Positions 1,758-64,000 of a DNA stretch of 64,000 nucleotides are shown piece by piece. This DNA is from Giardia intestinalis (taxonomy: Eukaryota): the NCBI GenBank assembly GCA_000002435.2, contig CM018790.1. One strand, given 5' to 3'. Below the pieces are notes generated by a model. The model saw only the letters and a program-made list of their open reading frames with translations, ran no database searches and was not told where the DNA came from. The position numbers were made by a program, and so were the translations under genes. Position 1 is the first letter of the stretch. Every line of letters begins with the position of its first letter.

Positions 1758-2711
1758 TCAGGGCTGCCTGGTCGGCCTTCCGAGCGGACCGTCACCCGTG
1801 CCCACGGGCCATCCGCCAGTATGTCCTGGCGATTGTATCAGAACAGGGACGTATGTCAGCGGCACCCCGAAGCCGAAGGGGTAGGGCGTCGGCTGTAGAC
1901 TGAGCACCCCCGACGCCTGGAGATAAGGGACGGCACCAGGGGCCGGATAGACACCCGGGATCGGATAAACATTCGGAGCAGCGCTAGGAGTGGGCGCGAA
2001 GGGCGGAACCAAGGAAAGGCTGGATGGTAGGTTCCTTGGCTCGACAATGCTGCAAGCAACAGACTCTGGTGGCGCAGATAGCGAGTTCTCAGGTACAGAC
2101 GTCCCTGTTTCGTCTTCGTCCTGAGGAGAAGATGGGGTTTCATCATTGTAACCAGGTAGGCGAAATACGGGTGGTTTAAACACCTCCTCGTTAGGGAGGC
2201 ACTGCTCTGCGCTAGATGGGTGATGGATGGCCGCACATGATCTGCTGCGTCTCGAGGAATGCTGAATACCGCACTTCTTGAAGAGGGTTTTGATACTACG
2301 GCTGTTGATTATATTGTTATAAGTCATCCGCAATTCTTGGCGTGGATACTTTTTCCCAAATTTCTCGCGAACCTTTCCATAGATGTCTTCTCTCACAATC
2401 CTTCTGCTTTCAATCCCATCTATGATAATTCCACGGATAATCTGACGATCTTCTTCTGTCATCTTTATGTTCAGAATGTTTCTTAGATGCGTTTCACGGT
2501 ACCAGTGGTAGATCCTGTTGCGATTTTGGTTGATCTCCGTGGCAATTTTGCGCCAGTTTACAGACGTTTTTATAACGTAAGTATAAAGTCTGTAAGGATT
2601 TGCAACAAGATCATTTGCAGTCTCTTGGATCTTTCGTACCCTGATAACTTCTTCAGCTAGCTTACGAAGGACCTCAATTTGGTCAGCGGGTGATAGACAG
2701 CAGCCAACCAT
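1758..2711 (-). CDS. hypothetical protein; N-terminal helical region with possible Myb/HTH-like stretch (..VNWRKIATEINQNRNRIYHWYRETH..), Pro/Tyr-rich low-complexity C-terminal tail
   Basis: Long ORF. The track start at 2723 is TTG; the first ATG is at aa5 (MVGCCLSPAD...), preceded by an AT-rich initiator-like sequence (ATATATAATATTTGCAGAAGACC-ATG) on the minus strand. Function unknown. Confidence 0.4.
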   Translation of the reverse strand: MVGCCLSPADQIEVLRKLAEEVIRVRKIQETANDLVANPYRLYTYVIKTSVNWRKIATEINQNRNRIYHWYRETHLRNILNIKMTEEDRQIIRGIIIDGIESRRIVREDIYGKVREKFGKKYPRQELRMTYNNIINSRSIKTLFKKCGIQHSSRRSRSCAAIHHPSSAEQCLPNEEVFKPPVFRLPGYNDETPSSPQDEDETGTSVPENSLSAPPESVACSIVEPRNLPSSLSLVPPFAPTPSAAPNVYPIPGVYPAPGAVPYLQASGVLSLQPTPYPFGFGVPLTYVPVLIQSPGHTGGWPVGTGDGPLGRPTRQP

Positions 2712-3411
2712 GGTCTTCTGCAAATATTATATATGGCCACAATCTGATGCATTAATATAGCGTAACGGTTGTGATTTGGCGTCGCCGGCGGCTTCTGTGA
2801 CCAGGATATGCTTCATCTAGCATCTAGGACTATTTCTGCCGCTTGTTTTCGAAGAATATTCTTCACTTTTTTGCTCTATTTTCTCTTTCCATTTCGAGAT
2901 CCAGGCCTCTTCAACGTAGACCCTGCTCTGCATAGCCTTACTGGTATTTTATTCACACATATATGCCCGTTTACCAGGGATAGCGAGTCTACTGTCAGTC
3001 TTTTTTCGAAAGTTTAGCACTAGATAAGTTTAGACTCGTGCTGTGCGCTGTGAAGATCCTGTGTGCTTCTAAGTATGCCTGCAATAAATTCTACAACGAG
3101 CTTTAGTCTCGGCACACTGTAGACCCACTAGCTGAGTATATTGACTAACAGGGAGATGATTTGCGCGCCTTTATACTTACAAGAACGAGTGAAAGCTGCG
3201 CTGAACAAGCTGCAGACCACGGTCGTCCACGGGGTGATGGCGCGGCTCACAACTAGCTGCTGCATGTACAGAACAGCACACATGGTCAAGGTCGGTCATT
3301 TACGGCGAAGAGCAAGGCCCCAGAAATTAACAGGAAGCGCCCCAGCGAGCACGACAAGGCCCCACAAGGGCGCGCTGAGCTGCAGGCCGTGCGGTGGAGC
3401 GGGACGGAAAG

Positions 3412-3484
3412 TGGACGATGAGGGATTTGAACCCCCGGCCTCTTGCATGCTAGGCAAGCGCTCTACCAACTGAGCTAACCGCCC
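3412..3484 (-). tRNA. tRNA-Ala (anticodon AGC)
   Basis: The reverse complement reads GGGCGGT-TA-GCTC-AGTTGGTA-GAGC-G-CTTGC-CTAGCAT-GCAAG-AGGCC-GGGGG-TTCAAAT-CCCTC-ATCGTCC-A (73 nt). The cloverleaf is complete: 7-bp acceptor stem with two G.U pairs, perfect D- and anticodon stems, U33, anticodon AGC at 34-36, purine at 37, T-loop TTCAAAT. It has the G3:U70 pair that is the identity element of tRNA-Ala. CCA is not encoded, as expected in a eukaryote. Confidence 0.85.
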
Positions 3485-3676
3485 TCGGAGCGGAGAAAAA
3501 TACCAGAACAGATGGCAGAGTACCGTGTTGTGTGGCCCGGGAGCGGCGCCTCGTGTCCTCGTTTACTGCCTGGCTGGCTGCGCCCGGAGCGCGAGCGTGA
3601 ACCCCCGCCCCGCCCCGTCGCAGGTGACTGTATTATCGAACCATACTAATCTTTAATCAAATAAACCCGCCTAAAA

Positions 3677-14606: not shown

Positions 14607-16484
14607 ATGAATGTTGCTGTCTTTGGACCTGCGTCCAACTCTGAACGTACATATCTGCACAATGTTCTCACAAGGGTTCTCTCAGATGTAACTACTATGG
14701 ATAGCGCCAGAGAAGCCCTTTCATTGGGGGGAGATGCATTGCTCGGCTATCCTCAATTTTCCGAAGTGGACTTGAAGCTAGAGCCCCCATTTCTCTCTCG
14801 AAATGCTACCGTGCCAAAACTTTTATCTAAGTTAGCACATGTCCCGGTGCTGGCTCGTTTGTTTCCCAAGCGGCTTCACAAACCAACTGCCATTGCCAAT
14901 TACACCCCATCCAAGAGAGCTTCCGGACGTGTATTTTGTGGCGTGTCAGACGGCCGTTTCATTGGAGAGGTAGTTGGATCTGCTCATCTAGGCGTCTCCA
15001 TGGCTTCGGCTAGCGTCTCCTATGACCCCGTGAGAAACATGACAGAGGGAAATCTAGAAGCTTGTCGTTTAGATCCCCTTCAGGTGTGTAATACTAAGCA
15101 CATACTGGTGCGCAAGGAAGCTGGTCAACAATTCTCTAACTATCAATCTTTTCTTAATACTATTTTCAATCAATCAGAGAGCAGGGAAAATAGCAGGGAG
15201 GGTAGCACTATTTCGCCACTTTCAGATACACAGGTAGAAGGGGTATCTCTCAAAGTGTCCAACACAGGAAACTTCAGATCCAATGACAACAATGACAAGC
15301 ATCAATTTGGTTCGGCACCATTCACAACAGAACTTTCTTTAATACTAACAGAGATAACCAAGGATATCCCGACGATGTTAAAGAAGCCCCAAGAGGATTC
15401 TCATTGGACATTTGCTAGCCCCGGACCAGCCTATCATCTTTCACAACTAGATGACGTGACCAGGTCTCTTCACTTCTACCGCAACTCTTCCCGTGTGTCA
15501 GTCGTTACGCAGAAGAATACTTTCATCACAAGCAGGGGTGTCTGGGACTCAGCCTCACGTAGCCATAGAGACGTACCACTGGATAGATATCTCAAGATAG
15601 GTAGGCAGATACTTACTACAGCGTCTCCACATCCGAACGTGTCTGTTCTCTTTGGGGTGGAGCCGTTCTGCAGATTCCATTTTGCTAGGGGTGCGACAAA
15701 CAGACGCTTGGCGTCAAATATTGTAACAGGCCTTCGTGCCGAAGTGGCAACGACGGCAGCAATGTACCTGAGTCCCAGTCTTATGCTTTCCGCATCTGGG
15801 TCTGTCCACGTATCTGAATCTATTGATAGAAGGCGTATATGCAACTTCATTAAGCAATTGCCTGCTGCTGCAAAACAAGACAGTACCCACCAAACCAACA
15901 GCAGCTATAGTCATAGGGCAGTGCTCTCTAATTTAACAAAATCGGAGATAGATGAGAATCTGGGTGACAGCATTAGAAGCAAATTGCGAGGGTTTGCTGA
16001 AGTAATGAGTCCCACGAGCTTTTCATATGTGAAGAACGAGATAATGAATCTCGAGAGCCACTCTGTCCAACCGCATGGGTATACATATACCCCAATTCAC
16101 GATGGTTACGGATGCGCAAGCTCTTCAAAACTGACTCTTTCACCAGTAACAACAGGAAGACATATGGGCAACGGGTTCCTGGCACGCACACACCTGATGG
16201 GGATATGGAAGTCGCCACTCCGAACACCTATATCTAGACCAAATTCAATATATCTGCTAGCAGGCATTGAGGCAGCCATCCCCAAGGATACTCCCCTGGG
16301 GTTAATAAAGGACCTTTCTGTCTATGGGGCGCGTAGAGTGATGCATAATTTTTTGGAATATGCAGCCTATACAGGCGTTCACGTTCGTACACCCATCCCC
16401 GTCACTGCAACTGTCTCACTGTGGTCAAGCAGGGACTTAACTATTAAGCAGAGATTCACATTTGGCTTTTCGCTGAATACATGA
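14607..16484 (+). CDS. hypothetical protein (625 aa), no recognisable domain
   Basis: Uninterrupted ORF with an AT-rich initiator. Its TGA stop is embedded in the ATGA start of the downstream Nbp35 paralogue. Confidence 0.45.
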   Translation: MNVAVFGPASNSERTYLHNVLTRVLSDVTTMDSAREALSLGGDALLGYPQFSEVDLKLEPPFLSRNATVPKLLSKLAHVPVLARLFPKRLHKPTAIANYTPSKRASGRVFCGVSDGRFIGEVVGSAHLGVSMASASVSYDPVRNMTEGNLEACRLDPLQVCNTKHILVRKEAGQQFSNYQSFLNTIFNQSESRENSREGSTISPLSDTQVEGVSLKVSNTGNFRSNDNNDKHQFGSAPFTTELSLILTEITKDIPTMLKKPQEDSHWTFASPGPAYHLSQLDDVTRSLHFYRNSSRVSVVTQKNTFITSRGVWDSASRSHRDVPLDRYLKIGRQILTTASPHPNVSVLFGVEPFCRFHFARGATNRRLASNIVTGLRAEVATTAAMYLSPSLMLSASGSVHVSESIDRRRICNFIKQLPAAAKQDSTHQTNSSYSHRAVLSNLTKSEIDENLGDSIRSKLRGFAEVMSPTSFSYVKNEIMNLESHSVQPHGYTYTPIHDGYGCASSSKLTLSPVTTGRHMGNGFLARTHLMGIWKSPLRTPISRPNSIYLLAGIEAAIPKDTPLGLIKDLSVYGARRVMHNFLEYAAYTGVHVRTPIPVTATVSLWSSRDLTIKQRFTFGFSLNT

Positions 16485-30802: not shown

Positions 30803-30918
30803 GACATTGACCTTCACTTAAGTTACTAAGTCTCAACTCACTTGAATCTTTAATAAAAAGGTAAATAGTTTCTTAGTTCCACTTTCCACCTATCAATTCC
30901 CTGCGGCGTTGGCGCACA

Positions 30919-36356: not shown

Positions 36357-37571
36357 TTACTTGAGCCGTGTTACTTGATTTGCCATGCACTGGCCACTAG
36401 TATTGCCCTCACATGAGCAAGCCCCCTGTCCAATCGGTGCAACAAGGAGCATAATTCTTGAGAGAGTAGGCTCTGCGACGATGAAGGTCAAGCTCCCATC
36501 AAGCTCTTTGTGACAAGACAGTTGGTCCACAAATGAGGTATCAACAAGAAGTTCTATTTCTACAGCAGATTGCAATCCTAATTTAATAGATGGGCGGATA
36601 TAAGCCACGAGTTCGGAAGAGCTATAGATCGTTCTATATACCGATCGGGAGGGTGCTCCTGTGAACGGAATGACCATTGAAAGGAACGATGCTCTATCCT
36701 GTATCGTCACTCTTACGACCTTTGGTGGCTTGCTTAGATATATCTTTGTGATGTCTGCCTCCAACAGTTGAATGGTGAGATGTCTGCTTTGGACACGTGA
36801 TGCCAAATCAAGTACGATTTCTCCACTAGCTATTATATTTGAAAGGCTGATGCTTTCTCCAGCAAACTCACGTATAATAAGAGGATCTATCCGGAACAAC
36901 TCGCTGAGCACAGCTATTTCGGCTTCGTAGTCCGCAGTACAAATTCGTCTACCTTGTCGCCCACGTCCCGCTTCTTTCATGTCAACTAACCACAGTGGTA
37001 TATCGCTTTCAGTAATCAAGTGATACTGAGTTCTGTCTTTCCAGTATCCATAATCAAACCACGGCTCTGTAACATAGATCCTCTTTCTGGTTGGGTTGGA
37101 GATGTGCAGCGAGACTGTATTGCCTATGCTGTTCGCCTTGTTGCCTGTAGTATCTGCCCTATTTCCAGTGACGTTGAGAGCTACAAGTGATGACCGCTTA
37201 TTTGCATTAGGATAGGCAGTGTAATTCAAGAGCATGGCAAAGGAAAAGGTGTCCTTTGGGTTAAATTCGTTTGTGTCAGGCACAGAAAAGTGGATGCTAT
37301 CATAGCCGCCGTCATAAGTTGGGATCTCCGTCTGGTAGAGTAATGAGGTGAGCCCATTAGTACCAAGCGTTGTCGAGGCACTCAATGACACTGAGTGGGT
37401 GTTAGCATTTGTCCCGCAAAAGTTAGCATCTATGACCAGGTACATTATCGCCCCGAGCATGATAGACCCCAGAATCGCAGACACACCAACAAGGAGTGTC
37501 ACGAGAGACCCAGACAAGTAACGAGGAACACGGGGATACTCTTTAGCAGGCCGCAAAGCCAAGTCATGCAT
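36357..37571 (-). CDS. hypothetical type II (signal-anchor) membrane protein with N-glycosylation-type sequons
   Basis: The N-terminus has one TM segment 'LVTLLVGVSAILGSIMLGAIMYLVI' after a short cytoplasmic segment. The remainder is a hydrophilic ectodomain with several N-x-S/T sequons. No known domain recognised. Confidence 0.45.
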   Translation of the reverse strand: MHDLALRPAKEYPRVPRYLSGSLVTLLVGVSAILGSIMLGAIMYLVIDANFCGTNANTHSVSLSASTTLGTNGLTSLLYQTEIPTYDGGYDSIHFSVPDTNEFNPKDTFSFAMLLNYTAYPNANKRSSLVALNVTGNRADTTGNKANSIGNTVSLHISNPTRKRIYVTEPWFDYGYWKDRTQYHLITESDIPLWLVDMKEAGRGRQGRRICTADYEAEIAVLSELFRIDPLIIREFAGESISLSNIIASGEIVLDLASRVQSRHLTIQLLEADITKIYLSKPPKVVRVTIQDRASFLSMVIPFTGAPSRSVYRTIYSSSELVAYIRPSIKLGLQSAVEIELLVDTSFVDQLSCHKELDGSLTFIVAEPTLSRIMLLVAPIGQGACSCEGNTSGQCMANQVTRLK

Positions 37572-37647
37572 GCCTGAGTTTGTGCTCTAACTCTGTAAGC
37601 GTTTACTGGTGGTCTTTGCATAGCAACAGATTCATGTACCTGTAAAG

Positions 37648-39330
37648 CTACTTACTGGGAGTAGCAGAGAGGCCAGCTTGCACTAGTTTAGAAGAGATGG
37701 TCTCAAGGCATGTACCTTTGGCCACCATGGCTGCTTCTTCAGGATTTGTGGCTCCCAGGATATTCTGAAGAGAAAGAAGAGGTGCACAAATCTGTGTGGC
37801 TGGAAGCTTAAGGACACGACGTAAAGCGACTGCAATCTCCTTGAAGGCTTGTTTTAAACACTGGAGTTGGTTCAGTGAGATGGGGCTTTGTATTAAGATG
37901 TTAGCTAGCATCACTGTGCTCTGCTTAATAACGGCAGACGCCAGTTCTGATGTGTAGCTAAGACTGTAATCTTGCTGCTCAAGCATAGTACAGAGTGATT
38001 CAATGAAAAGAGTTGGATCTTGGGTTTGAGCAATGACCAATAGTTCCGAGTGGACTGCACTAATAAAGTTACTAGCGAAGGTACTCAGGGCTGCTTGATA
38101 GGTTCTTGTAGCTTGCTCTTCCAGTTGGTGATTGTGTCCATACTGGGACACAAAGGTCGTGAGTAGGTATAATGTTAGAAGCTCAGGATCTGACGAACCC
38201 TGTGCTGCAAGCCTCGACAGTGTCTGTTGAACAATGCTACTCTCCAAGGAGTGGATAGCCTCTTTGTGGACACGCTCGAGGCGCTGAATTCGTTGAAAGG
38301 CATACTCGACGGAATTCTCAAACTGTTCGAATTCTCTGTCGAGTAGCAGAGTGGCTAAAGTGGAGGACGTAAGGTCTATTTCTACGGTTTTGTATAACGA
38401 ACATATCTGGTTATGCAGGGTTATGTACTTGGTTATAGCAGACCCTGCAGACATCCCTGTCAGTTGCTGTGCGTGGGAATCATGATGTTCTATTATATTG
38501 ATGAAGCGTGTAACGAGATTGGCGATCAGCTGAAGGTAATCGGCGCTCGATTCCCGCTCTGTTGTAATACTATTAATACCATCTAAGATTGCGTTAATAG
38601 ACGACGTAAGAGTAGATGCAGTTTTATTGAGAATGTACTGAATAGAATGATCATAGATATCCAGAAGAAGCACGTTACTATCAACGCACCTAATTATAGA
38701 AAGAGACTGTATGTTGGTGTAAGCAGTATGAAATGCATAGAATGCTTTGTCAACTTGTTGTGCAAGGGCTTGTATGTGTAGAGAGAGTAGCTTAGTTGTT
38801 TCAGCTAAAAGCGGACTAGGCGCTACGGGGGGTATGTCAGCACACAGTCGGGCACACCAGTCATCCAGCGAAAGTGTAAGTGGCACAATGCATCCTGACT
38901 GATTTAGTTCCCACCGCTCAAGAATGGCCAACATTCTGTCAGAATCTATCTTGAGCTCCGTTGCCGTTCGTGCAGTCTGAATGGAGTCTGCAGCAAGCTT
39001 CAAGGCTCTGTCGGGAGTTGGTAGCTGCAAAAGTGCCTCGAGGCGAGCAATGGTGCCTTCTCCCCCGGAAACCATGTCGATTGTCAAGAGAAGTTTGCGG
39101 GCAGAGATAAGCTGTGAAAATAAGTCTTGTGGCAACGCAGAAACTTGGCTCAATCCGTTAAGGTGGTCGAAGGAAGAGGAGACAGCAATAGCGACTTTTT
39201 CACCACGTTGCATGCTCTGTTCAAGCTGATAATAGCTGGAAAGAACACGTCCTCGAGCTCTCTGGCGAAGGTCATGGACGACAGCTAAGTCTGCAGAGAG
39301 CAGATCCTTAGAAGCAGGCAGCTGCGCCAT
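37648..39330 (-). CDS. hypothetical alpha-helical protein (560 aa)
   Basis: Long ORF with an ATG start. Helical composition, no motif recognised. Confidence 0.45.
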   Translation of the reverse strand: MAQLPASKDLLSADLAVVHDLRQRARGRVLSSYYQLEQSMQRGEKVAIAVSSSFDHLNGLSQVSALPQDLFSQLISARKLLLTIDMVSGGEGTIARLEALLQLPTPDRALKLAADSIQTARTATELKIDSDRMLAILERWELNQSGCIVPLTLSLDDWCARLCADIPPVAPSPLLAETTKLLSLHIQALAQQVDKAFYAFHTAYTNIQSLSIIRCVDSNVLLLDIYDHSIQYILNKTASTLTSSINAILDGINSITTERESSADYLQLIANLVTRFINIIEHHDSHAQQLTGMSAGSAITKYITLHNQICSLYKTVEIDLTSSTLATLLLDREFEQFENSVEYAFQRIQRLERVHKEAIHSLESSIVQQTLSRLAAQGSSDPELLTLYLLTTFVSQYGHNHQLEEQATRTYQAALSTFASNFISAVHSELLVIAQTQDPTLFIESLCTMLEQQDYSLSYTSELASAVIKQSTVMLANILIQSPISLNQLQCLKQAFKEIAVALRRVLKLPATQICAPLLSLQNILGATNPEEAAMVAKGTCLETISSKLVQAGLSATPSK

Positions 39331-39348
39331 TTACACGGTAGAAAAAAG

Positions 39349-39750
39349 CTAGTCGGGCATGTTTTTGACTACAAGGTCTAGAGCATGGGTAAATGCCTCG
39401 TTGTTTTGGAAGGATGTCGCCGGTATCCACTCTAAATTCTTCACTACCGTGGGAACAAAGATATCTCGGTAGATGGCCTGCAGTTCGTCGCTGAGAGGCT
39501 TGCTCTCGGGCCTCGTCAAAAAGACGAACCAGTATCCACTTGCAGTCTCGTAAATGTGACAGGTGTAGGTATCTGTTTTGAAGAACTCCAACCGGGCGTC
39601 CTCGCCCGGCGTCAAGGCTACTGAACTGCGTCGCAGAGCAAAAAGTAGCCCGGCCAACATGTCCATCGGGGCGTCATCAGCGTGCTCGAAGGCGCGGAAG
39701 TACAGCAGGGCCCCGGAGCGCCGGTAGACGTAGAACTGGAGAGGCGGCAT
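39349..39750 (-). CDS. BET5: TRAPP complex small subunit, Bet5/TRAPPC1-like (longin-like fold)
   Basis: 133 aa. 'FYVYRRSGALLYF' corresponds to TRAPPC1 'LYLFDRNGVCLHY', 'YTCHIYETASGYWFVFLTRP' to 'YKLHYYETPTGIKVVMNTD', and 'FVPTVVKN' to 'VELVVKNP'. Confidence 0.65.
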   Translation of the reverse strand: MPPLQFYVYRRSGALLYFRAFEHADDAPMDMLAGLLFALRRSSVALTPGEDARLEFFKTDTYTCHIYETASGYWFVFLTRPESKPLSDELQAIYRDIFVPTVVKNLEWIPATSFQNNEAFTHALDLVVKNMPD

Positions 39751-40300
39751 AGCAAAGTATTTTAAATTGGATTCGCTTCGGAGAAAGAAAAAGGACGCCG
39801 AAGCAGCCGCGGCCTCTGGCTTGGACCCCGTGGCGTCGCCGGCCTCCGCGGAGGCAGGGGCCGGCCCGCCTTCAACTCAGCCGGACAGCCGGAGGCCGGA
39901 GACGGAGCACGGTCAGGCGGGCGGGGTGCAGTGCCAGCCCCAGCCGCAGAGCGGCTTCCTTTACTCAAGATCGGGCGGGTTCGGGGGTTCCTCGTCCTCC
40001 CCGAAGCCCAGGATCAGGTCTGCGCGCGCCGCGACGGCGTGGACGGTCTCCGGCTCCGTCGCGGTGTACGGGACGAAGCAGAGCCCGCCCTCTGCGACGA
40101 CGGCCTGCTCGATCGCGGCGTCGAGGGGCCGCGTCCTGGCCACGCGGGGCTCCGCCATGCTGGCCACGAGGTCCTGCAGCTCGTCGTGGCCCGCACCAAG
40201 GAGCCGCGCCTGCAGCTCCGACCCAAGTAAATCGACCTTGCTCATCACGGGCAGGAAGGCCGTGCCGCAGCTGCTCATGGCGCTCATGGCGACCAGGACG
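39560..40300. other. GC-rich island centred on the TRAPP-GPN intergenic region, extending into the 5' end of the TRAPP gene and the 3' half of the GPN gene
   Basis: The intergenic stretch 39751-39960 is itself GC-rich (..GCCGGCCTCCGCGGAGGCAGGGGCCGGCCCGCC..). The last ~110 codons of the GPN gene have G or C at nearly every third position, whereas its first ~150 codons have ordinary composition. At least four spurious 70-181-aa ORFs overlap here in other frames. Confidence 0.55.
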
Positions 40301-40764
40301 GTGGAAAGGTAGGAGCTCCGGGTCTGGAACTTCTGGGCCTCTGCTATGTAGACAAGCAGGACGGTGTATCCGCGCGTCTGGAGCACACGGCTCAGGATCC
40401 CTATGCAGTCGTAATAGGTGAAAAGCTCGACCTGCCCCGCGAAGTCGATGAGGAGGTAGTCGTCTGGGTAGTCTCCCAGTGCGTCGTCGAGCCACGATTG
40501 CTGCAAGGGATCTGAGAGAGCGTACTCGAGCGCATAGACAAGGGCGCCGTTTGGTCCAAGGCTGCAGTACTCCATCACGTCCTGAACCGAGACAAACTCG
40601 CGTATGTCTACAGCAGCAGAGTAGGGGATGGTCTCCGACGCCGGGTCAAAGTTAAAGACATTCACTGTTCTGTGCAGAAGGGAGAAGTGGTCCTGAAGAA
40701 TTGCGCAATACGTTGACTTTCCAGATCCTGCCGGTCCCACGACAATCTGGCAGAACTTGCCCAT
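39961..40764 (-). CDS. GPN-loop GTPase (GPN3-like; XAB1/Npa3 family)
   Basis: 'QIVVGPAGSGKSTYCA' (G1), 'VNVFNFDPA', 'GPNGALVYALEY' (GPN loop), 'LLIDFAGQVELF' (G3/DxxGQ), 'SKVDLL' (G4-like). The ATG start is preceded by CCCTAAAAGAA. Confidence 0.8.
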   Translation of the reverse strand: MGKFCQIVVGPAGSGKSTYCAILQDHFSLLHRTVNVFNFDPASETIPYSAAVDIREFVSVQDVMEYCSLGPNGALVYALEYALSDPLQQSWLDDALGDYPDDYLLIDFAGQVELFTYYDCIGILSRVLQTRGYTVLLVYIAEAQKFQTRSSYLSTVLVAMSAMSSCGTAFLPVMSKVDLLGSELQARLLGAGHDELQDLVASMAEPRVARTRPLDAAIEQAVVAEGGLCFVPYTATEPETVHAVAARADLILGFGEDEEPPNPPDLE

Positions 40765-40799
40765 TTCTTTTAGGGATTCAGGAGTAAAAAAGTGAGTGC
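40765..40799. promoter_or_regulatory. 35-bp bidirectional region between GPN GTPase (-) and coiled-coil gene (+)
   Basis: TTCTTTTAGGGATTCAGGAGTAAAAAAGTGAGTGC lies between two ATGs on opposite strands. Confidence 0.45.
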
Positions 40800-42356
40800 A
40801 TGACTTTAAATCTCAGCTTCCCCCTTTACAGAATATATGACCACTACAGAGACGCCCACTACGCCTTTGGTGAAGAGATAACGAGCATCTTTGCCGGATT
40901 GGAGCCTGCCATCAAGGCCTTTGGAGTCGAACTGGATCAATACAAACTCTCGGACCCAATCAATATGGCTCCCTTTCCTGAGGTGTTGCATGCAGTGGCA
41001 ACAACAAGTAGTAGTCGCTTCAGCAGTGTATTCAAGCGGCTTGATGACCTATCCCTGATCAAGGAAATGATATCCGAGATTCGTGCCGCCAGTAAAAGTA
41101 GAGAAAGCAGAATGCAGCATACCATACAGGTCCAGCGTGATGTTTCTGTAGCTCTCCACAAGACTCCTGCTGGCTCTGTCTCGGAACCCGATCTAAAGAA
41201 GGCACTTGGTCAAAAGCCAAACCAGATCCCAGATAACCTAGAGGAGATTGTTCGTCAGAAACAAGTGGAACTGGAAAAAGAGATGCGGGCTCGTGTCGAG
41301 GTCATGGTAGAAAAGGAGAAAGAACTGCAAGAGAGGGTAGAGCAGATGGACGCAGAGATCAAGCGTCTTGAGCGACAAAACGCAGAACTTGATCAGAAAA
41401 TGAAAAAGGAGATTGATGAAGAAAGAAGTTTACGGGAAAAGGAAGCAAATCTGGCTACTGAATACGAGAAGAAAATTAAAAGCCTAGCCAACGAGCTAGC
41501 AGAGCTCCACCAACAAAAGTCCACATACGAGCAGAACTTTGCCATTAAAAAAGCAGAGTGTGAAGACGAGTTACACAGCATTCAGCAGGCGCTCTTGAAA
41601 GTCAAGACTGAATTGGCCCAGGTGTCCGCTGCGAAAACCACTACACAAACGGAGCTAGAGAGTGTAGGGAAGAAGCGACAGCAAAATGCAGAAGACATAG
41701 TCAACTTGGCATCGCAGCTCTCGGAGGCAGGCCCTCTGATAGATAGAAACATTAAGATATTTGAGTATGTGATGGACAGCGGCGAAGAGATGATATCTTC
41801 TGCAATCCATAGGTTAATGAAGACTGGATCACGTGTAGAGAGCACAGAGTTCGAGGGCACTCGAGAGTTCACCATGCCTCTCACAGAAAACTTGCGGGGG
41901 ATTGGTGAAAATAAAGATTCAACACATAGTGAGAGATGCTTGTTGCTTGATAAGCTTAAGCAATCAGATCAGGACTCGGCACAGCAACAACAACAGCAGC
42001 AAGTACCTACAGATGGAAGTGGAGCAGAAAAGAAGGCAGAGAAATACGTCATTCCCATAGAGTATGAAGCTGACTTGTCGAAGAGCCAGGTGCCGGTTGC
42101 AGACTGGGCAGTGGATGCCCTGCTCTCAAAGTGCATCAACCAGTCATCTAAGATCGATCCTGACACGGTATTTCAGCCCCCTCAACAGAAAGTCACAGTA
42201 TATGAACTCTTTGGAATAAGCAACCATCCCTATGACAACAGAACCAGGCAAACACAGAACTGGTCCACTGACAAACTAACACAAAAGGAGATAGAGCTTT
42301 ATAACGCCAAGATGGGGTTCTCTGCCCAAAGACCCCATTCCAGCTACCATAAATAG
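40800..42356 (+). CDS. hypothetical coiled-coil protein with short poly-Q tract
   Basis: 518 aa. Long heptad-type region ('..KQVELEKEMRARVEVMVEKEKELQERVEQMDAEIKRLERQNAELDQKMKKEIDEERSLREKEANLATEYEKKIKSLANELAELHQQKS..') and 'SAQQQQQQQVPT'. Confidence 0.5.
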   Translation: MTLNLSFPLYRIYDHYRDAHYAFGEEITSIFAGLEPAIKAFGVELDQYKLSDPINMAPFPEVLHAVATTSSSRFSSVFKRLDDLSLIKEMISEIRAASKSRESRMQHTIQVQRDVSVALHKTPAGSVSEPDLKKALGQKPNQIPDNLEEIVRQKQVELEKEMRARVEVMVEKEKELQERVEQMDAEIKRLERQNAELDQKMKKEIDEERSLREKEANLATEYEKKIKSLANELAELHQQKSTYEQNFAIKKAECEDELHSIQQALLKVKTELAQVSAAKTTTQTELESVGKKRQQNAEDIVNLASQLSEAGPLIDRNIKIFEYVMDSGEEMISSAIHRLMKTGSRVESTEFEGTREFTMPLTENLRGIGENKDSTHSERCLLLDKLKQSDQDSAQQQQQQQVPTDGSGAEKKAEKYVIPIEYEADLSKSQVPVADWAVDALLSKCINQSSKIDPDTVFQPPQQKVTVYELFGISNHPYDNRTRQTQNWSTDKLTQKEIELYNAKMGFSAQRPHSSYHK

Positions 42357-42378
42357 GAGTCCCCAGCTGATTAATCGG

Positions 42379-43182
42379 CTATCTGCCCTCTGTTATAGAG
42401 GTGAGCAAATCGACATACCTTTGTATTACACTATCAACCAGCGATGCCAAGGCATCTGTGTGTAAACTCTTGGGGATAGCCTTGATCCGGTCGAGGTTCC
42501 ATGCAAAGGGAAGCATAAAGAGCTTCGCCTTCCTATGACCTCCCTTGATGCACGCAGTAGGAAGGGCATCTAAAAGAGCAGCCTGTTGTGTGGTGGGGGC
42601 ACCAATAGTAGCCGTTTGTCCGGCAACTGATGCACTCTTCTGATAGAATGTCTGAAAGTTAGTGTTCAGAGCAGACATGATGGGGTGCAATTCTGGATCC
42701 CCGTCCACTACTGCCTGATAGAACGGAATGGTTAGAAGCTCGTAGAAGGGCTGAGAGAAAAGGCACGAGGGGATGACCGCCTTTAAAGACCCCAGCCCAC
42801 TGGAGGCTCCTAGATCACATGGAATTGCAAGAAATGTCGGTAGCGAATGCAAAAACTCAAGGGGCCGAAGCTCCTCACCTTCAAAGGGATACGTAACTAG
42901 CTGAACATGCTGCTCAAGTCCTCGCTGCTTCTTAAGTTTATCTAAAATGATCCGCTGAATAGCACTGTGCTCCGGTTGCACACGAAGCAGAGAGAGCTCA
43001 ACCATCATCTTTGGGCTCTTCCGCTTTCTAAGGAAGACCGCGTCGCAAATAGCGTCTGTAAAGGTTTCCACGTGCGTCTTGACCTGTTTCTGCTTTGTAA
43101 TATCTAGCCCTGGTGGAAAGATGAGCGGGAATAGGAGAGCAGGACGCCGTTGATCCGTTGTATTCATCTTCAATATTTTCAT
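42379..43182 (-). CDS. hypothetical protein (about 267 aa)
   Basis: The track start at 43194 is TTG; the first ATG is at aa5 (MKILKMNTTD..) with AT-rich upstream sequence. No motif recognised. Confidence 0.4.
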   Translation of the reverse strand: MKILKMNTTDQRRPALLFPLIFPPGLDITKQKQVKTHVETFTDAICDAVFLRKRKSPKMMVELSLLRVQPEHSAIQRIILDKLKKQRGLEQHVQLVTYPFEGEELRPLEFLHSLPTFLAIPCDLGASSGLGSLKAVIPSCLFSQPFYELLTIPFYQAVVDGDPELHPIMSALNTNFQTFYQKSASVAGQTATIGAPTTQQAALLDALPTACIKGGHRKAKLFMLPFAWNLDRIKAIPKSLHTDALASLVDSVIQRYVDLLTSITEGR

Positions 43183-43245
43183 TTGAAATTTCAATTAACA
43201 CGTCATAAATGTTAATTTTTATAAAGGATTGACACAGACAACTTC

Positions 43246-44475
43246 ATGACTGACCAGGGTGCCAGGCAGAAAGATCCGCAGAAGGATAGGCACGAGACAT
43301 CCAACTTATCAGTAACAGCAGACTATGTTGACAAGTGCAATAGCTCTCCGTTAGAAACGTACCTGCGTCTCTTCGCAGATATTTTCCTCAGTGACGAAGA
43401 GTACGTCTACTTTATGCTCGCAATTGCTAACACAGGGCGCATAGAAACAAAGGGCGGAGCCATTGCGTACCATGTGAGTGACTACATAAACGCCATTCTC
43501 AATCAGAAGCGCATAGAGAAGGTCAATAAGGACCATAACTCGGTGCTCCACGGAAAGGGTACAGACGACCCTGCTGTAAGGGCCTTCTGTGAAATGATTG
43601 AGATAAATTTCATAGAAAGAAATACCTCGGCCCAGCACTCTAATTACCAAGCTAATGCCTCCTATCTTTTCAATCTCAAGAAATTTCTAATTACTAGCTT
43701 TTATAATCTAGATATATATGTTACCAAGTTAGAAGCAGAGCTGAAGGACCCGATATCCATGGGACATGTCAAGTACCATTGTGAGTATTGTGATAAAAGG
43801 TTTACAGAAGCAGATCTATATAAGCTTAATAAGAACGGAAATATCAAAAGCAGCACATGCCCTAAGTGCTTCAAGCCACGGCTAACCTTGGTGACCAAGC
43901 ACAACCAAGACAAGGATGACACCGCAATGAAAAAGGGAATGTTGTCGGTGTTGAAGGAACTGCATGCTTTGGGGAAGAGGATAATCAGTGAATACATGGA
44001 CAAGAAGGAGAACTACTATGCAGTGAGGCTCAGAGAATTCCAGAACTCCTATCAGAATAACTTCCTGGAGGGCCAGCGAATATATAATAAGTGCAACGGT
44101 GCAGCAGCAATGAAGGTAGCAGATGAAGATGGAGAAGGGAGCGAAGACCAGGAAGACACTTTCACGTGGTTGTCGGCGAATACAGACGGGGTATCGTCTG
44201 CAACCTCGAGCCAGGAAGTGGCCAATGTGTCAGGACTTCGGCCAAGCCAAGGAGCTGCACACACAAATTCATATAGCCTTGGTGGAAAGAAGCGGCGACG
44301 AATAGACGTCACCTCTACTGATTTCAGATCTGTCTTTAGCAAGAGAAACGGGGCGTTCTGGAGGAGCGAGAAGCTTGGTGGGATGACCGTCCTCGGTGAG
44401 TCAACAAGAAGACCCAAGTGGTTCGTCGCTATAAACGAAAAGGCACAGAGGGTATTAAATAGGGGCAAGCGCTAA
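43246..44475 (+). CDS. hypothetical protein with C2C2 zinc-ribbon (CX2C-x21-CX2C) and basic C-terminal tail
   Basis: 'HCEYCDKRFTEADLYKLNKNGNIKSSTCPKCFKP'. The spacing resembles the zinc ribbon of TFIIE-alpha/TFE-type proteins, but I could not confirm family membership. Confidence 0.4.
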   Translation: MTDQGARQKDPQKDRHETSNLSVTADYVDKCNSSPLETYLRLFADIFLSDEEYVYFMLAIANTGRIETKGGAIAYHVSDYINAILNQKRIEKVNKDHNSVLHGKGTDDPAVRAFCEMIEINFIERNTSAQHSNYQANASYLFNLKKFLITSFYNLDIYVTKLEAELKDPISMGHVKYHCEYCDKRFTEADLYKLNKNGNIKSSTCPKCFKPRLTLVTKHNQDKDDTAMKKGMLSVLKELHALGKRIISEYMDKKENYYAVRLREFQNSYQNNFLEGQRIYNKCNGAAAMKVADEDGEGSEDQEDTFTWLSANTDGVSSATSSQEVANVSGLRPSQGAAHTNSYSLGGKKRRRIDVTSTDFRSVFSKRNGAFWRSEKLGGMTVLGESTRRPKWFVAINEKAQRVLNRGKR

Positions 44476-46349: not shown

Positions 46350-46901
46350 AAGATTTTATTTTACACTGGTGCGCGCTCACTCCTCTCATCGAGCAGCCTC
46401 GGATACTGGCAGCTATGATCGTGGGAGGCATCTGGCTGCATCAGAAGGCCTTTGTTTAAAGTTCTGTTTAACGTTTTCCAGAAGAGACGAAAGAGCAGCA
46501 TCTTGCTAGAGCTAGCAAGGCGCGCACTTTGTCATGATATTGTTGCAATTTACAATAAACTAGCTTTTGTAGTGTTTAATTTATTGAAAACCTTTGGAGA
46601 TTGGAAGCGATTGGTTTTGCCTAGGCGCCATATGGGCCCAAACACACTAATAAAGCAGTATTTTTAGCGTAATGACGCAGACATATTTGCTATGACTATA
46701 TTTTGCAAAATTTAAGGAAATTTCATTGTTTTCCCACACAGACCGAGTAATTTCGCCGACAGTCTCTAAAGGGAACGAATTCTGTAACAGTGTCAGCGTC
46801 ACCTGACGGATCGTATCACTAGTCAAGACTCTAAAGATATTAAACTAAAACATTTTCTACAAATAAAGCTTGAGAAATTAAATTTTGGGGAAGACGTAGA
46901 G

Positions 46902-63326: not shown

Positions 63327-63378
63327 TCATAACCTAGGTAGTCATATAAAATACTCTAGGTTTATGTTAATAAACTTA

Positions 63379-64000
63379 CTAAATTGTTAGTGGCTGGAGA
63401 GATCCATTGCCTGCGCATCCGCGCTTGCACACTGTCAGGCCGAGTGCAAGGCCAATGGCCCCGCCTACAAGAACGGCCACGCCAAGGGTGATCCCTGTGA
63501 TCGCGCCTGGGCCGAGGCTACGCTTGACCGACGAGCCTCCGCAGTAGTTCTCCAGGGGGAGATCTCCGTCCGCACAACGGAGGCAGAGGACGGCGCCTGA
63601 CCATGCCTGCGCCTGGCAGAGCCCGCACCCGTGGATGCCTGCCATCCGAAGCCCCTGGGGCGCCGTCTGGTCGCAGGGCACACAGTCCCGGGGGCCTCCG
63701 AGGGGCGTCGCCTGGAAGTACCCGTCGGCACAGGCCAGACAGCTGGCTGCCGACGAACAAGCGGCGCACAGAGGGGGGCATGCCAGGCAGCGGTCGCCTG
63801 CCAGGTGCCAGCCCCTCTTGCAGGAGGTGCAGACGCCCCCGTCGCAACGGGCGCAGCCGGCCGCGGTGCACGGGCTGCACGAGCCCCCGGAGAGCCCGTA
63901 GCCCTCCGCGCAGGCGTGGCACGTGACCCCCGCCCTTGTCAGGTCTGCTGCGCACACGGCACAGTGTGGAATTCCCGTGAAACCGTTCTGACTTGTTGCG
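63379..64000 (-). CDS. VSP/HCMP-like cysteine-rich surface protein, partial (5' end lies beyond the window); C-terminal TM and short tail
   Basis: CXXC/CXC-rich frame ('CHACAEGYGLSGGSCSPCTAAGCARCDGGVCTSCKRGWHLAGDRCLACPPLCAACSSAASCLACADGYF..'). The C-terminal 'GAITGITLGVAVLVGGAIGLALGLTV' TM is followed by 'CKRGCAGNGSLQPLTI'. The frame stays open upstream of the track's GTG 'start' to the window edge. This segment is strongly GC-rich (63460-64000), with spurious ORFs in the other frames. Confidence 0.55.
   Translation of the reverse strand, partial: ATSQNGFTGIPHCAVCAADLTRAGVTCHACAEGYGLSGGSCSPCTAAGCARCDGGVCTSCKRGWHLAGDRCLACPPLCAACSSAASCLACADGYFQATPLGGPRDCVPCDQTAPQGLRMAGIHGCGLCQAQAWSGAVLCLRCADGDLPLENYCGGSSVKRSLGPGAITGITLGVAVLVGGAIGLALGLTVCKRGCAGNGSLQPLTI

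Follow-up and report, generated by a model that had tools for sequence, protein, structure and literature searches.

A GC-rich island in Giardia duodenalis: a predicted SRP RNA gene at its core and a probable GC-ward compositional bias in the flanking protein genes

What produces a sharp GC-rich island between two housekeeping genes, and why does the richness in G and C run on into the codons of both? The question is raised by a 64 kb stretch of Giardia duodenalis assemblage A (hereafter the window; outside and background refer to the rest of the window unless stated), in which such an island lies between a gene for a small TRAPP subunit and a gene for a GPN-loop GTPase. A first-pass annotation, made from the letters of the sequence, had taken the centre of the island for an intergenic spacer and had proposed for the island, as the first of several possibilities, a recombination hotspot with GC-biased gene conversion (gBGC). 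The analysis reported here indicates that the core is almost certainly the Giardia gene for the RNA of the signal recognition particle (SRP), on the plus strand. For the island as a whole, the best explanation is this RNA gene together with a local GC-ward bias in its flanks, most likely gBGC, a combined reading that we place slightly above even. The features concerned are as follows.

~39560-40560, strand not applicable: GC-rich island, GC of at least 0.60 in 300-nt windows, with tails of raised G+C content at third codon positions (GC3) to 39350 and 40764.
39349..39750, minus strand: TRAPP small subunit gene, Sybindin family, 133 aa (Pfam PF04099, E 1.4e-13).
39751..39794, strand not applicable: AT-rich spacer of 44 nt, GC 0.34, between the divergent TRAPP and SRP RNA genes, conserved in assemblages A and B and in G. 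muris.
~39782-39793, plus strand: A-rich box GAAAGAAAAAGG, resembling the boxes that precede Giardia non-coding RNA (ncRNA) genes, conserved in A, B and E.
~39798..39960 (ends +/- ~5 nt), plus strand: predicted SRP (7SL) RNA gene, S domain only (Rfam RF01856 match, consensus fold).
39800-39958, plus strand: helix 5 of the SRP RNA; also recognised are helix 6, capped by a GGAG (GNAR) loop, and helix 8, capped by a GAGA (GNRA) loop and bearing an AGCA internal-loop motif.
39957..39968, plus strand: ncRNA 3'-end processing motif TCCTTTACTCAA, exact match, directly after helix 5.
39961..40764, minus strand: GPN-loop GTPase 3 gene, 267 aa (Pfam PF03029, E 4e-49; homologues), convergent with the SRP RNA gene.

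The sharpness of the island, as first described, is borne out by sliding windows of GC and GC3. Relative to a window mean GC of 0.475 (standard deviation (sd) 0.059 across 200-nt windows), the island peaks at 0.70-0.77, and the SRP core at 39795-39960 stands at 0.765 (z 4.9). Rightward of the core GC is 0.73 at 39961-40160 (z 4.3), 0.64 at 40161-40360 and 0.59 at 40361-40560, followed by 0.525 and 0.455 in the next two 200-nt blocks, and background is regained by 40761; leftward it is 0.58 at 39595-39794 and 0.495 at 39395-39594. The island is asymmetric, with ~600-800 bp on the downstream (GPN) side and ~200 bp on the upstream (TRAPP) side. Across the whole 64 kb, four stretches reach a GC of at least 0.60 in 300-nt windows, namely 705-2145, 3182-3674, 39554-40565 and 63348-64000. 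The gap between the open reading frames (ORFs) of TRAPP and GPN (39751-39960) has a GC of 0.68 compared with 0.19-0.55 in the 24 other inter-ORF gaps, in agreement with the earlier observation of a GC-rich gap among AT-rich ones. A survey of 1778 windows of 30 codons from 35 ORFs gave a mean GC3 of 0.484 (sd 0.109, 99th percentile 0.77), and the ten windows with a GC3 of at least 0.85 all fell within GPN and TRAPP, whose identities as first proposed are upheld by PF03029 and PF04099.

The identity of the core was indicated by an Rfam search of the sub-region in E-value mode, in which RF01856 (Protozoa_SRP, clan CL00003) matched 39746-39962 on the plus strand with 57.4 bits and an E-value of 3.8e-11 over model positions 1-228. 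The family also matched at the equivalent site in assemblage AII (A2), in assemblage B and in G. muris with 56-63 bits, and in the more distant lineage L004 (Logan SRR22936437), where the sequence is cut at the 5' end (model positions 52-228), with 47.9 bits. E-values at these loci ranged from 1e-10 to 6e-7, and the matches were full-length except in L004. The GPN of L004 is 74% identical to that of assemblage A, and its SRP RNA gene lies in the equivalent position. One copy of the gene was found per locus examined, a count that covers these loci and not whole genomes. A consensus fold built with RNAalifold on six Giardia sequences contained 52 pairs, nine of them with compensatory changes, compared with 2.0 +/- 1.3 in shuffles and 1-2 in slid controls, and pairing cells amounted to 96.9% versus 36-45% in slid controls. 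Helix 5, which is long and closes the S domain, holds five compensatory pairs, while helix 6 has 15 pairs, three of them compensatory, and presents the GGAG loop (GNAR, the SRP19 site). Helix 8, CCG-GAGA-CGG between GGAGG and GAGCACGG, is invariant in all six sequences. The GNRA tetraloop of helix 8 together with the AGCA internal loop is the SRP54-binding motif. In helices 5, 6 and 8 with their GNAR and GNRA loops, in the AGCA motif, and in compensatory changes between G. duodenalis and G. muris, the RNA resembles protozoan SRP RNAs as described by RF01856. Helix 8 also has a 17-nt inverted match to the stretch of GPN encoding EPETVH, which is put down to chance or to the protein sequence.

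No Alu domain (helices 2-4) was found at the 5' end, where model positions 1-55 fall on the AT-rich TRAPP promoter, and conservation at the locus starts at ~39800; the RNA would therefore comprise the S domain only, at ~160 nt. This is in line with the Alu-less SRP published for G. intestinalis and for Spironucleus, another diplomonad, and with the published absence of SRP9/14 from Giardia, and the identity of the core as an SRP RNA gene is in this respect already known biology. The TRAPP-GPN gap keeps its length (210 nt in A, B and E, 226 nt in G. muris) and is better conserved than the adjoining ends of the coding regions. The supposed intergenic spacer at the island centre is thus occupied by an RNA gene, as judged from the RF01856 match and the nine compensatory pairs. 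The GC richness of the core is then explained by a structured RNA, compact and densely paired in the manner of Giardia rRNA, rather than by a repair footprint. In Giardia, the first check on GC-rich "intergenic" DNA should accordingly be for ncRNA genes.

Giardia ncRNA genes follow a common layout, in which an A-rich element precedes the RNA and the RNA is followed by CCTTYNHTHAA, with an A/T-rich initiation element 1-500 nt before the motif (PMC3510501). The 12-nt motif, [T/A/C]C[C/A]TT[T/C][A/T/C][C/T/A]T[C/T/A]AA, is placed by definition at the mature 3' end or immediately beyond it and is shared between isolates (Hudson et al. 2012, PMC3510501), and TCCTTTACTCAA is the commonest of its 39 variants (PMC3510501). 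The present locus is similar, with an A-rich box, an RNA of ~165 nt and then TCCTTTACTCAA; the box GAAAGAAAAAGG lies ~165 nt upstream of the motif and, by analogy with the published genes, may act as the SRP RNA promoter. The motif occurs at the matching position in A2, in B (three haplotypes), in E and in L004, and as a variant in G. muris. The 44-nt spacer also holds an initiator-like AT-rich element of TRAPP, so that SRP RNA and TRAPP diverge from it, while SRP RNA and GPN converge and abut tail-to-tail, the motif overlapping, on the opposite strand, the final two codons of GPN and its stop codon (39961-39963). The locus differs from the ncRNA genes of Hudson et al. (PMC3510501) in that SRP RNA is unmentioned there, and in that the motif here also encodes the end and stop of a convergent protein gene. 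Precursors of Giardia ncRNAs are known to extend beyond the processing motif.

The pattern CCTTYNHTHAA was also found at 30811-30821 (+), 9 nt past a stop codon in a 116-nt spacer, at 46449-46459 (+), in a gap of 1.5 kb that lacks any ORF of 120 aa or longer, and at 15823-15833 (-). None of these matches coincides with a GC island, and the total of four in the window, versus 2.9 expected, is not above chance.

Beyond the core, the composition of the two protein genes changes with position. In GPN, GC3 increases from 0.50-0.65 in codons 1-90 to 0.90-1.00 in codons 141-267 (~39961-40340), with values of 0.97-1.00 sustained over ~80 codons, which agrees with the GC3 saturation first described for the 3' third of the gene. 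The 5' half, described at the same time as ordinary, does lie far below the 3' third, but its GC3 of 0.60-0.63 is already ~1 sd above background. In TRAPP, GC3 is 0.95/0.90 in codons 1-30 (~39660-39750), then 0.60-0.70, falling to 0.50 at the 3' end; the proposed saturation and relaxation are seen, over ~30 codons rather than ~50. The G+C content at first codon positions (GC1) of GPN rises to as much as 0.95 in the C-terminal third (codons 181-200), so that the protein sequence of GPN is also affected. Ala, Gly, Pro and Arg abound in this third, and 12 of the 30 codons from 181 to 210 differ between assemblages A and B. By these values the C-terminal third of GPN is not simply conserved, as the claim of conserved and ordinary proteins would have it. 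The GPN protein is 99% identical to that of the assemblage AII isolate DH and clusters with WB (GPN3 of WB, XP_001708244).

All six frames had been described as open across the island; over 39760-40300 only two of the six are free of stops, and the other frames carry 2-6. An antisense ORF at 39767-40312 (181 aa) and other alternative-frame ORFs had no Pfam match and are interrupted by stops in B and L004; such ORFs are attributed to the GC richness itself. The possibility of another structured RNA beneath the 3' third of GPN, dicistronic or antisense, was also considered and rejected: the fold is no better than that of shuffles (z -1.25), no further processing motif was found downstream of the SRP RNA on the plus strand, and synonymous sites show ordinary divergence from L004.

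Comparison across assemblages and relatives revealed a GC3 ramp toward the RNA gene in GPN from 0.60 to 0.97 in A, from 0.40 to 0.87 in E (P15) and from ~0.5 to 0.8 in B, on local backgrounds of 0.37-0.53, and a GC3 at the 5' end of TRAPP of 0.95 in A and B and 0.75 in E. GPN GC3 is uniformly high in L004 and U-shaped in G. muris. It is flat and uniformly high in L006, where GPN has other neighbours and no SRP RNA match was found within the ±4 kb retrieved. The presence of the ramp in A, E and B, together with the flat GPN of L006 without an adjoining SRP gene, indicates that the gradient is a property of the locus and not of the protein. The L006 sequence (Logan SRR31929897), which like L004 comes from a Giardia-like lineage, encodes a GPN 50% identical to that of A. 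Within the GC-rich third of GPN, synonymous differences from L004 affect 0.41-0.58 of the codons for the same amino acid, an ordinary rate, and a lower synonymous rate was observed only versus B, in the last 57 codons.

To describe the direction of change, substitutions over ~37400-43354 were polarised by parsimony on A and E with B as outgroup, using P15 (L009) and the assemblage B sequence (L002). Changes from A or T to G or C (weak to strong, W>S) and the reverse (S>W) numbered 33:12 in the island core in the A lineage, at an ancestral GC of 0.63, and the equilibrium GC of that lineage was estimated at 0.82 in the island (bootstrap 0.72-0.91) versus 0.58 outside. Over SRP RNA and GPN combined the A-lineage ratio was 34:7, compared with 242:138 outside (p 0.015). 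Without polarisation, sites with G/C in A and A/T in E outnumbered the reverse by 84:20 in the island and by 470:268 outside (p 0.0006). With L004 as outgroup, the A-lineage ratio along GPN went from 2:6 to 6:7 to 8:1 (p 0.015). The W>S changes of the A lineage include first and second codon positions, i.e. GC-ward amino-acid replacements. The first-pass statement that the GC3 gradients are not a coding requirement is supported by this GC-ward change in the A lineage, by the dependence of the gradient on the locus across orthologues and by the lack of conservation at synonymous sites.

Outside the island, the A lineage shows a W>S excess (the 242:138 above) and the E lineage an S>W excess (130:228). 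The sister assemblages A and E are drifting apart in composition over ~6 kb, island included (local GC 0.484 vs 0.439).

From these comparisons of sequence, the GC3 flanks are quite probably the product of a non-adaptive compositional bias. That the bias is gBGC specifically is a more tentative proposal, to which we give somewhat less than even weight. The observed GC/GC3 peak falls off with distance and involves non-coding sites as well as synonymous and weakly constrained non-synonymous ones. Under the gBGC proposal, a local GC-ward bias would radiate from the SRP RNA gene, ~200 bp into TRAPP and 600-800 bp into GPN, the longer, downstream side being the one that precursor transcripts would read into. 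The bias would drive weakly constrained sites to G/C, that is, third positions and, in the poorly conserved GPN loop, first and second positions as well. Heavy transcription of the ncRNA would provoke recombinational repair between homologous chromosome copies (transcription-associated recombination), this repair would carry gBGC, and the gradient would mirror the length of conversion tracts. The gBGC recombination hotspot of the first-pass annotation thus survives in part: it does not apply to the core, which is an RNA gene, and the unraised diversity and the lack of the local bias in the E lineage speak against it, while for the flanks gBGC is the best candidate in view of the ramp and the GC-ward change in the A lineage.

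Several known systems bear on this proposal. Mature rRNAs and transcribed spacers of Giardia are ~75% GC, for which gBGC has been put forward as an explanation (PMC10123126); genes in gene-conversion events between AI and AII are enriched in GC, 0.541 vs 0.488 (PMC12669663). As in the ribosomal DNA (rDNA) of Giardia (PMC10123126), GC richness here spills from a functional RNA into flanking transcribed DNA, but the rDNA is multicopy and subtelomeric with an obvious route for conversion between copies, whereas the SRP RNA gene lies among ordinary housekeeping genes. The gBGC peaks at stable hotspots in yeast and birds and at rDNA arrays (Escobar et al. 2011) share with the present island a kb-scale GC/GC3 peak that decays with distance, an effect on synonymous, non-coding and weakly constrained non-synonymous positions alike, a position that is conserved while the sequence is not, and a W>S excess in one lineage. 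The present island differs in that the bias is absent in E and diversity is not raised. A further difference is that Giardia is without observed meiosis, so that conversion would be mitotic or between nuclei. Nothing specific was found in the literature on gBGC in Giardia outside rDNA or on GC-rich flanks of Giardia ncRNA genes.

Two further explanations can be set aside with considerable confidence. The gradients could be driven by codon usage or by the proteins themselves, through translational selection on GPN and TRAPP or through amino-acid content. Giardia GC3 reportedly varies among genes and rises with expression level, a trend that Lafay and Sharp are said to have described in 1999, and the Ala-, Gly-, Pro- and Arg-rich C-terminal third of GPN would also speak for this possibility. 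It is nevertheless very hard to credit, as the gradient lies inside each gene and passes smoothly into GC-rich DNA that is non-coding, the GPN orthologues are flat in L004 and L006 and U-shaped in G. muris, identical residues are coded with much lower GC3 in E, and the shift in amino acids, confined to the A lineage, is GC-ward as well; protein-driven composition is largely refuted by the orthologue comparison. A replication origin, offered earlier as an alternative, or some other chromosomal landmark is likewise extremely unlikely. Cumulative GC skew climbs steadily from 36 to 42 kb without an inflection at the island, its sole turning point in the window being at ~47.5 kb; no repeats, tandem arrays or rDNA-like insertions were found within the island, and its core is fully explained by the RNA gene.

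Among the rivals, a transcription-linked mutational bias is the main one and selection for GC-rich flanks is weaker. In the former, SRP transcription and read-through into GPN would shift mutation or repair toward G/C without recombination, and the gradient would track transcript density. Such a bias would suit an island that is longer on the read-through side (~600-800 bp vs ~200 bp upstream), precursors that run past the processing motif, a W>S excess of the A lineage in SRP RNA and GPN and not in TRAPP, and a diversity that is not elevated, for which a hotspot signal is unnecessary. We regard it as unlikely all the same, because the transcription-associated mutagenesis known from measurements on tRNA and Pol III genes is AT-ward, producing C>T and G>A changes (PMC6130373), strand skew over the island is not clear (GC skew +0.04 to +0.06), the upstream 5' end of TRAPP is GC3-saturated too in A and B, and the effect is absent in the E lineage despite an intact SRP gene. 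The transcription-associated mutagenesis described at tRNA genes (Thornlow et al. 2018, PMC6130373) resembles the situation in this window in that a conserved RNA body is flanked by fast-evolving DNA, as at the tRNA-Ala described below, but it is AT-ward over tens of nt and not GC-ward over hundreds. Selection could act by purging AT-rich DNA around the ncRNA gene, as protection from cryptic promoters, poly(A) signals and antisense transcripts, or, in a variant, by maintaining GC-rich DNA as the chromatin or nucleosome setting of the gene. The conserved position of the island in A, E and B, and weakly in G. muris, is compatible with this, as is the finding that the sole AT-rich segment within the island is the conserved 44-nt promoter spacer; loose, AT-rich, bidirectional promoters are documented in Giardia. 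Taken together, the two variants are distinctly improbable, given that a GC3 of 0.97-1.00 over ~80 codons and GC-ward amino-acid changes exceed what avoiding AT-rich runs would need, that E is losing the island (51 S>W vs 8 W>S) with the SRP gene unchanged, and that comparable islands are poorly conserved in sequence.

A number of results weigh against the combination of an SRP RNA core with gBGC in the flanks. The Rfam score of 57.4 bits lies below the gathering score of 65 for RF01856, owing to the missing Alu domain, and Rfam at gathering thresholds over the whole window returned tRNA only, missing the SRP RNA; at 57 bits, under the curated 65, the gene differs from other protozoan SRP RNAs and is hence overlooked by automatic Rfam annotation. 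It was missed both by the annotation-free reading and by the default threshold. The polarisation relies on parsimony with an outgroup 27% diverged and on small counts. The upstream, TRAPP side has no A-lineage excess (15:11), and in the E lineage the island has a W>S:S>W ratio of 8:51 and an equilibrium GC of 0.21, versus 0.31 outside, with no local GC-ward bias; by this count of substitutions the island is eroding in E. In G. muris, with unchanged gene order, the island is weak only. The divergence between AI and AII is not raised in the island (0.0113 vs 0.0134 per bp; 16 variable sites in the island between two A haplotypes), nor is the diversity among three B haplotypes (0.0049 vs 0.0045; seven variable sites), so that the elevated divergence or heterozygosity predicted for a hotspot is absent from both comparisons, an outcome compatible with a hotspot or with none. 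Heavy SRP transcription and read-through into GPN are assumed, by analogy with other Giardia ncRNAs. On present data gBGC is not separable from a local mutational bias, and any generality is drawn from a single SRP gene, a single tRNA and a single unexplained island.

The locus offers a natural experiment, in that the same two housekeeping genes in the same order show the ramp in three assemblages with lineage-specific dynamics. Should the ramp be a conversion footprint, it would provide a cheap genome-wide handle on exchange between homologues in a parasite whose sexuality is disputed. Should it instead reflect a transcription-linked mutational bias, the direction of that bias would be opposite to the one known in animals and yeast. 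Under either mechanism, a non-adaptive process would be altering protein sequence in the C-terminal loop of GPN. A wider proposal, which we consider doubtful, is that the abundant ncRNA genes of Giardia (SRP RNA, tRNAs, rDNA) each seed a persistent kb-scale island through GC-biased inter-homologue repair, rewriting the codons and amino acids of their neighbours. If this were true, the strength of an island in each lineage, growing in A and eroding in E, would serve as a sequence-only gauge of inter-homologue conversion in supposedly asexual lineages.

The other GC-rich stretches of the window were compared with the SRP locus in this regard. One of them contains a tRNA gene.

3411-3484, minus strand: tRNA-Ala(AGC), identical in A, E and a second lineage (L008), in a GC-rich patch with flanks of GC 0.62 and 0.565.

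The tRNA island and the island at 750-2100 are retained in A, E and B in both position and GC, with 55-75% identity as opposed to 80-98% in coding DNA, and are among the least conserved stretches of the window. The flanks of the tRNA-Ala are 55-74% identical between A and E. The asymmetry of A over E seen at the SRP locus was not seen at the 750-2100 and tRNA islands (219:179 vs 366:261).

The low-coordinate flank of the tRNA-Ala is almost unalignable between assemblages. On its other side, at 3490-3660 on the plus strand, A, E and L008 share an unchanged block of 55 nt (~3558-3612). An A-rich box (~3494-3503) lies ahead of the block, and behind it comes ATCTTTAATCAA (3649-3660), which departs from the ncRNA processing motif by one mismatch. 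This interval is a candidate for an unannotated ncRNA gene divergent from the tRNA-Ala.

The island at 705-2145 (1.4 kb, GC 0.64) holds no convincing gene, none being called in the P15 annotation, and gave no Pfam or Rfam matches. Its GC is 0.64 in A and 0.61 in E, and its position is conserved with a sequence identity of only 65-75%. Among the small perfectly conserved blocks within it, the A-rich boxes CAAAAGAAAAAATGCGC (~1236-1254) and GAGCTCGAAAAGAAAATCGGG (~1653-1675) resemble the box before the SRP RNA gene and may mark unannotated ncRNA transcription units. A hypothetical protein of 317 aa at 1758-2711 (-) belongs to a Giardia-specific paralogue family and has the P15 orthologue GLP15_4271 (82% identity); the GC of its gene rises from 0.40 at the 5' end to 0.67 at the 3' end, into the 750-2100 island, and does likewise in P15 and in L008 (69% protein identity). 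Just left of the window, P15 has a further GC-rich stretch (L007, 7700-8800) with a GC of 0.63-0.74 over ~1.1 kb, which overlaps a called gene of 214 aa with a weak GST_N_2 match and gave no Rfam match. The fourth island of the window, at 63379-64000 (-) with a GC of 0.71, is the 3' end of a gene for a VSP-family/cysteine-rich membrane protein (PF03302, E 1.7e-13) that runs off the window, and so not every GC island here is tied to an ncRNA gene.

Finally, the gene adjoining GPN at 40800-42356 (+) encodes a coiled-coil protein of 518 aa with a marginal match near its C terminus to the INCENP ARK-binding domain (IN-box; PF03941, 23.2 bits vs a cut-off of 22). Its G. muris orthologue has an equally weak PF03941 match, and the protein is a candidate for the Giardia INCENP.

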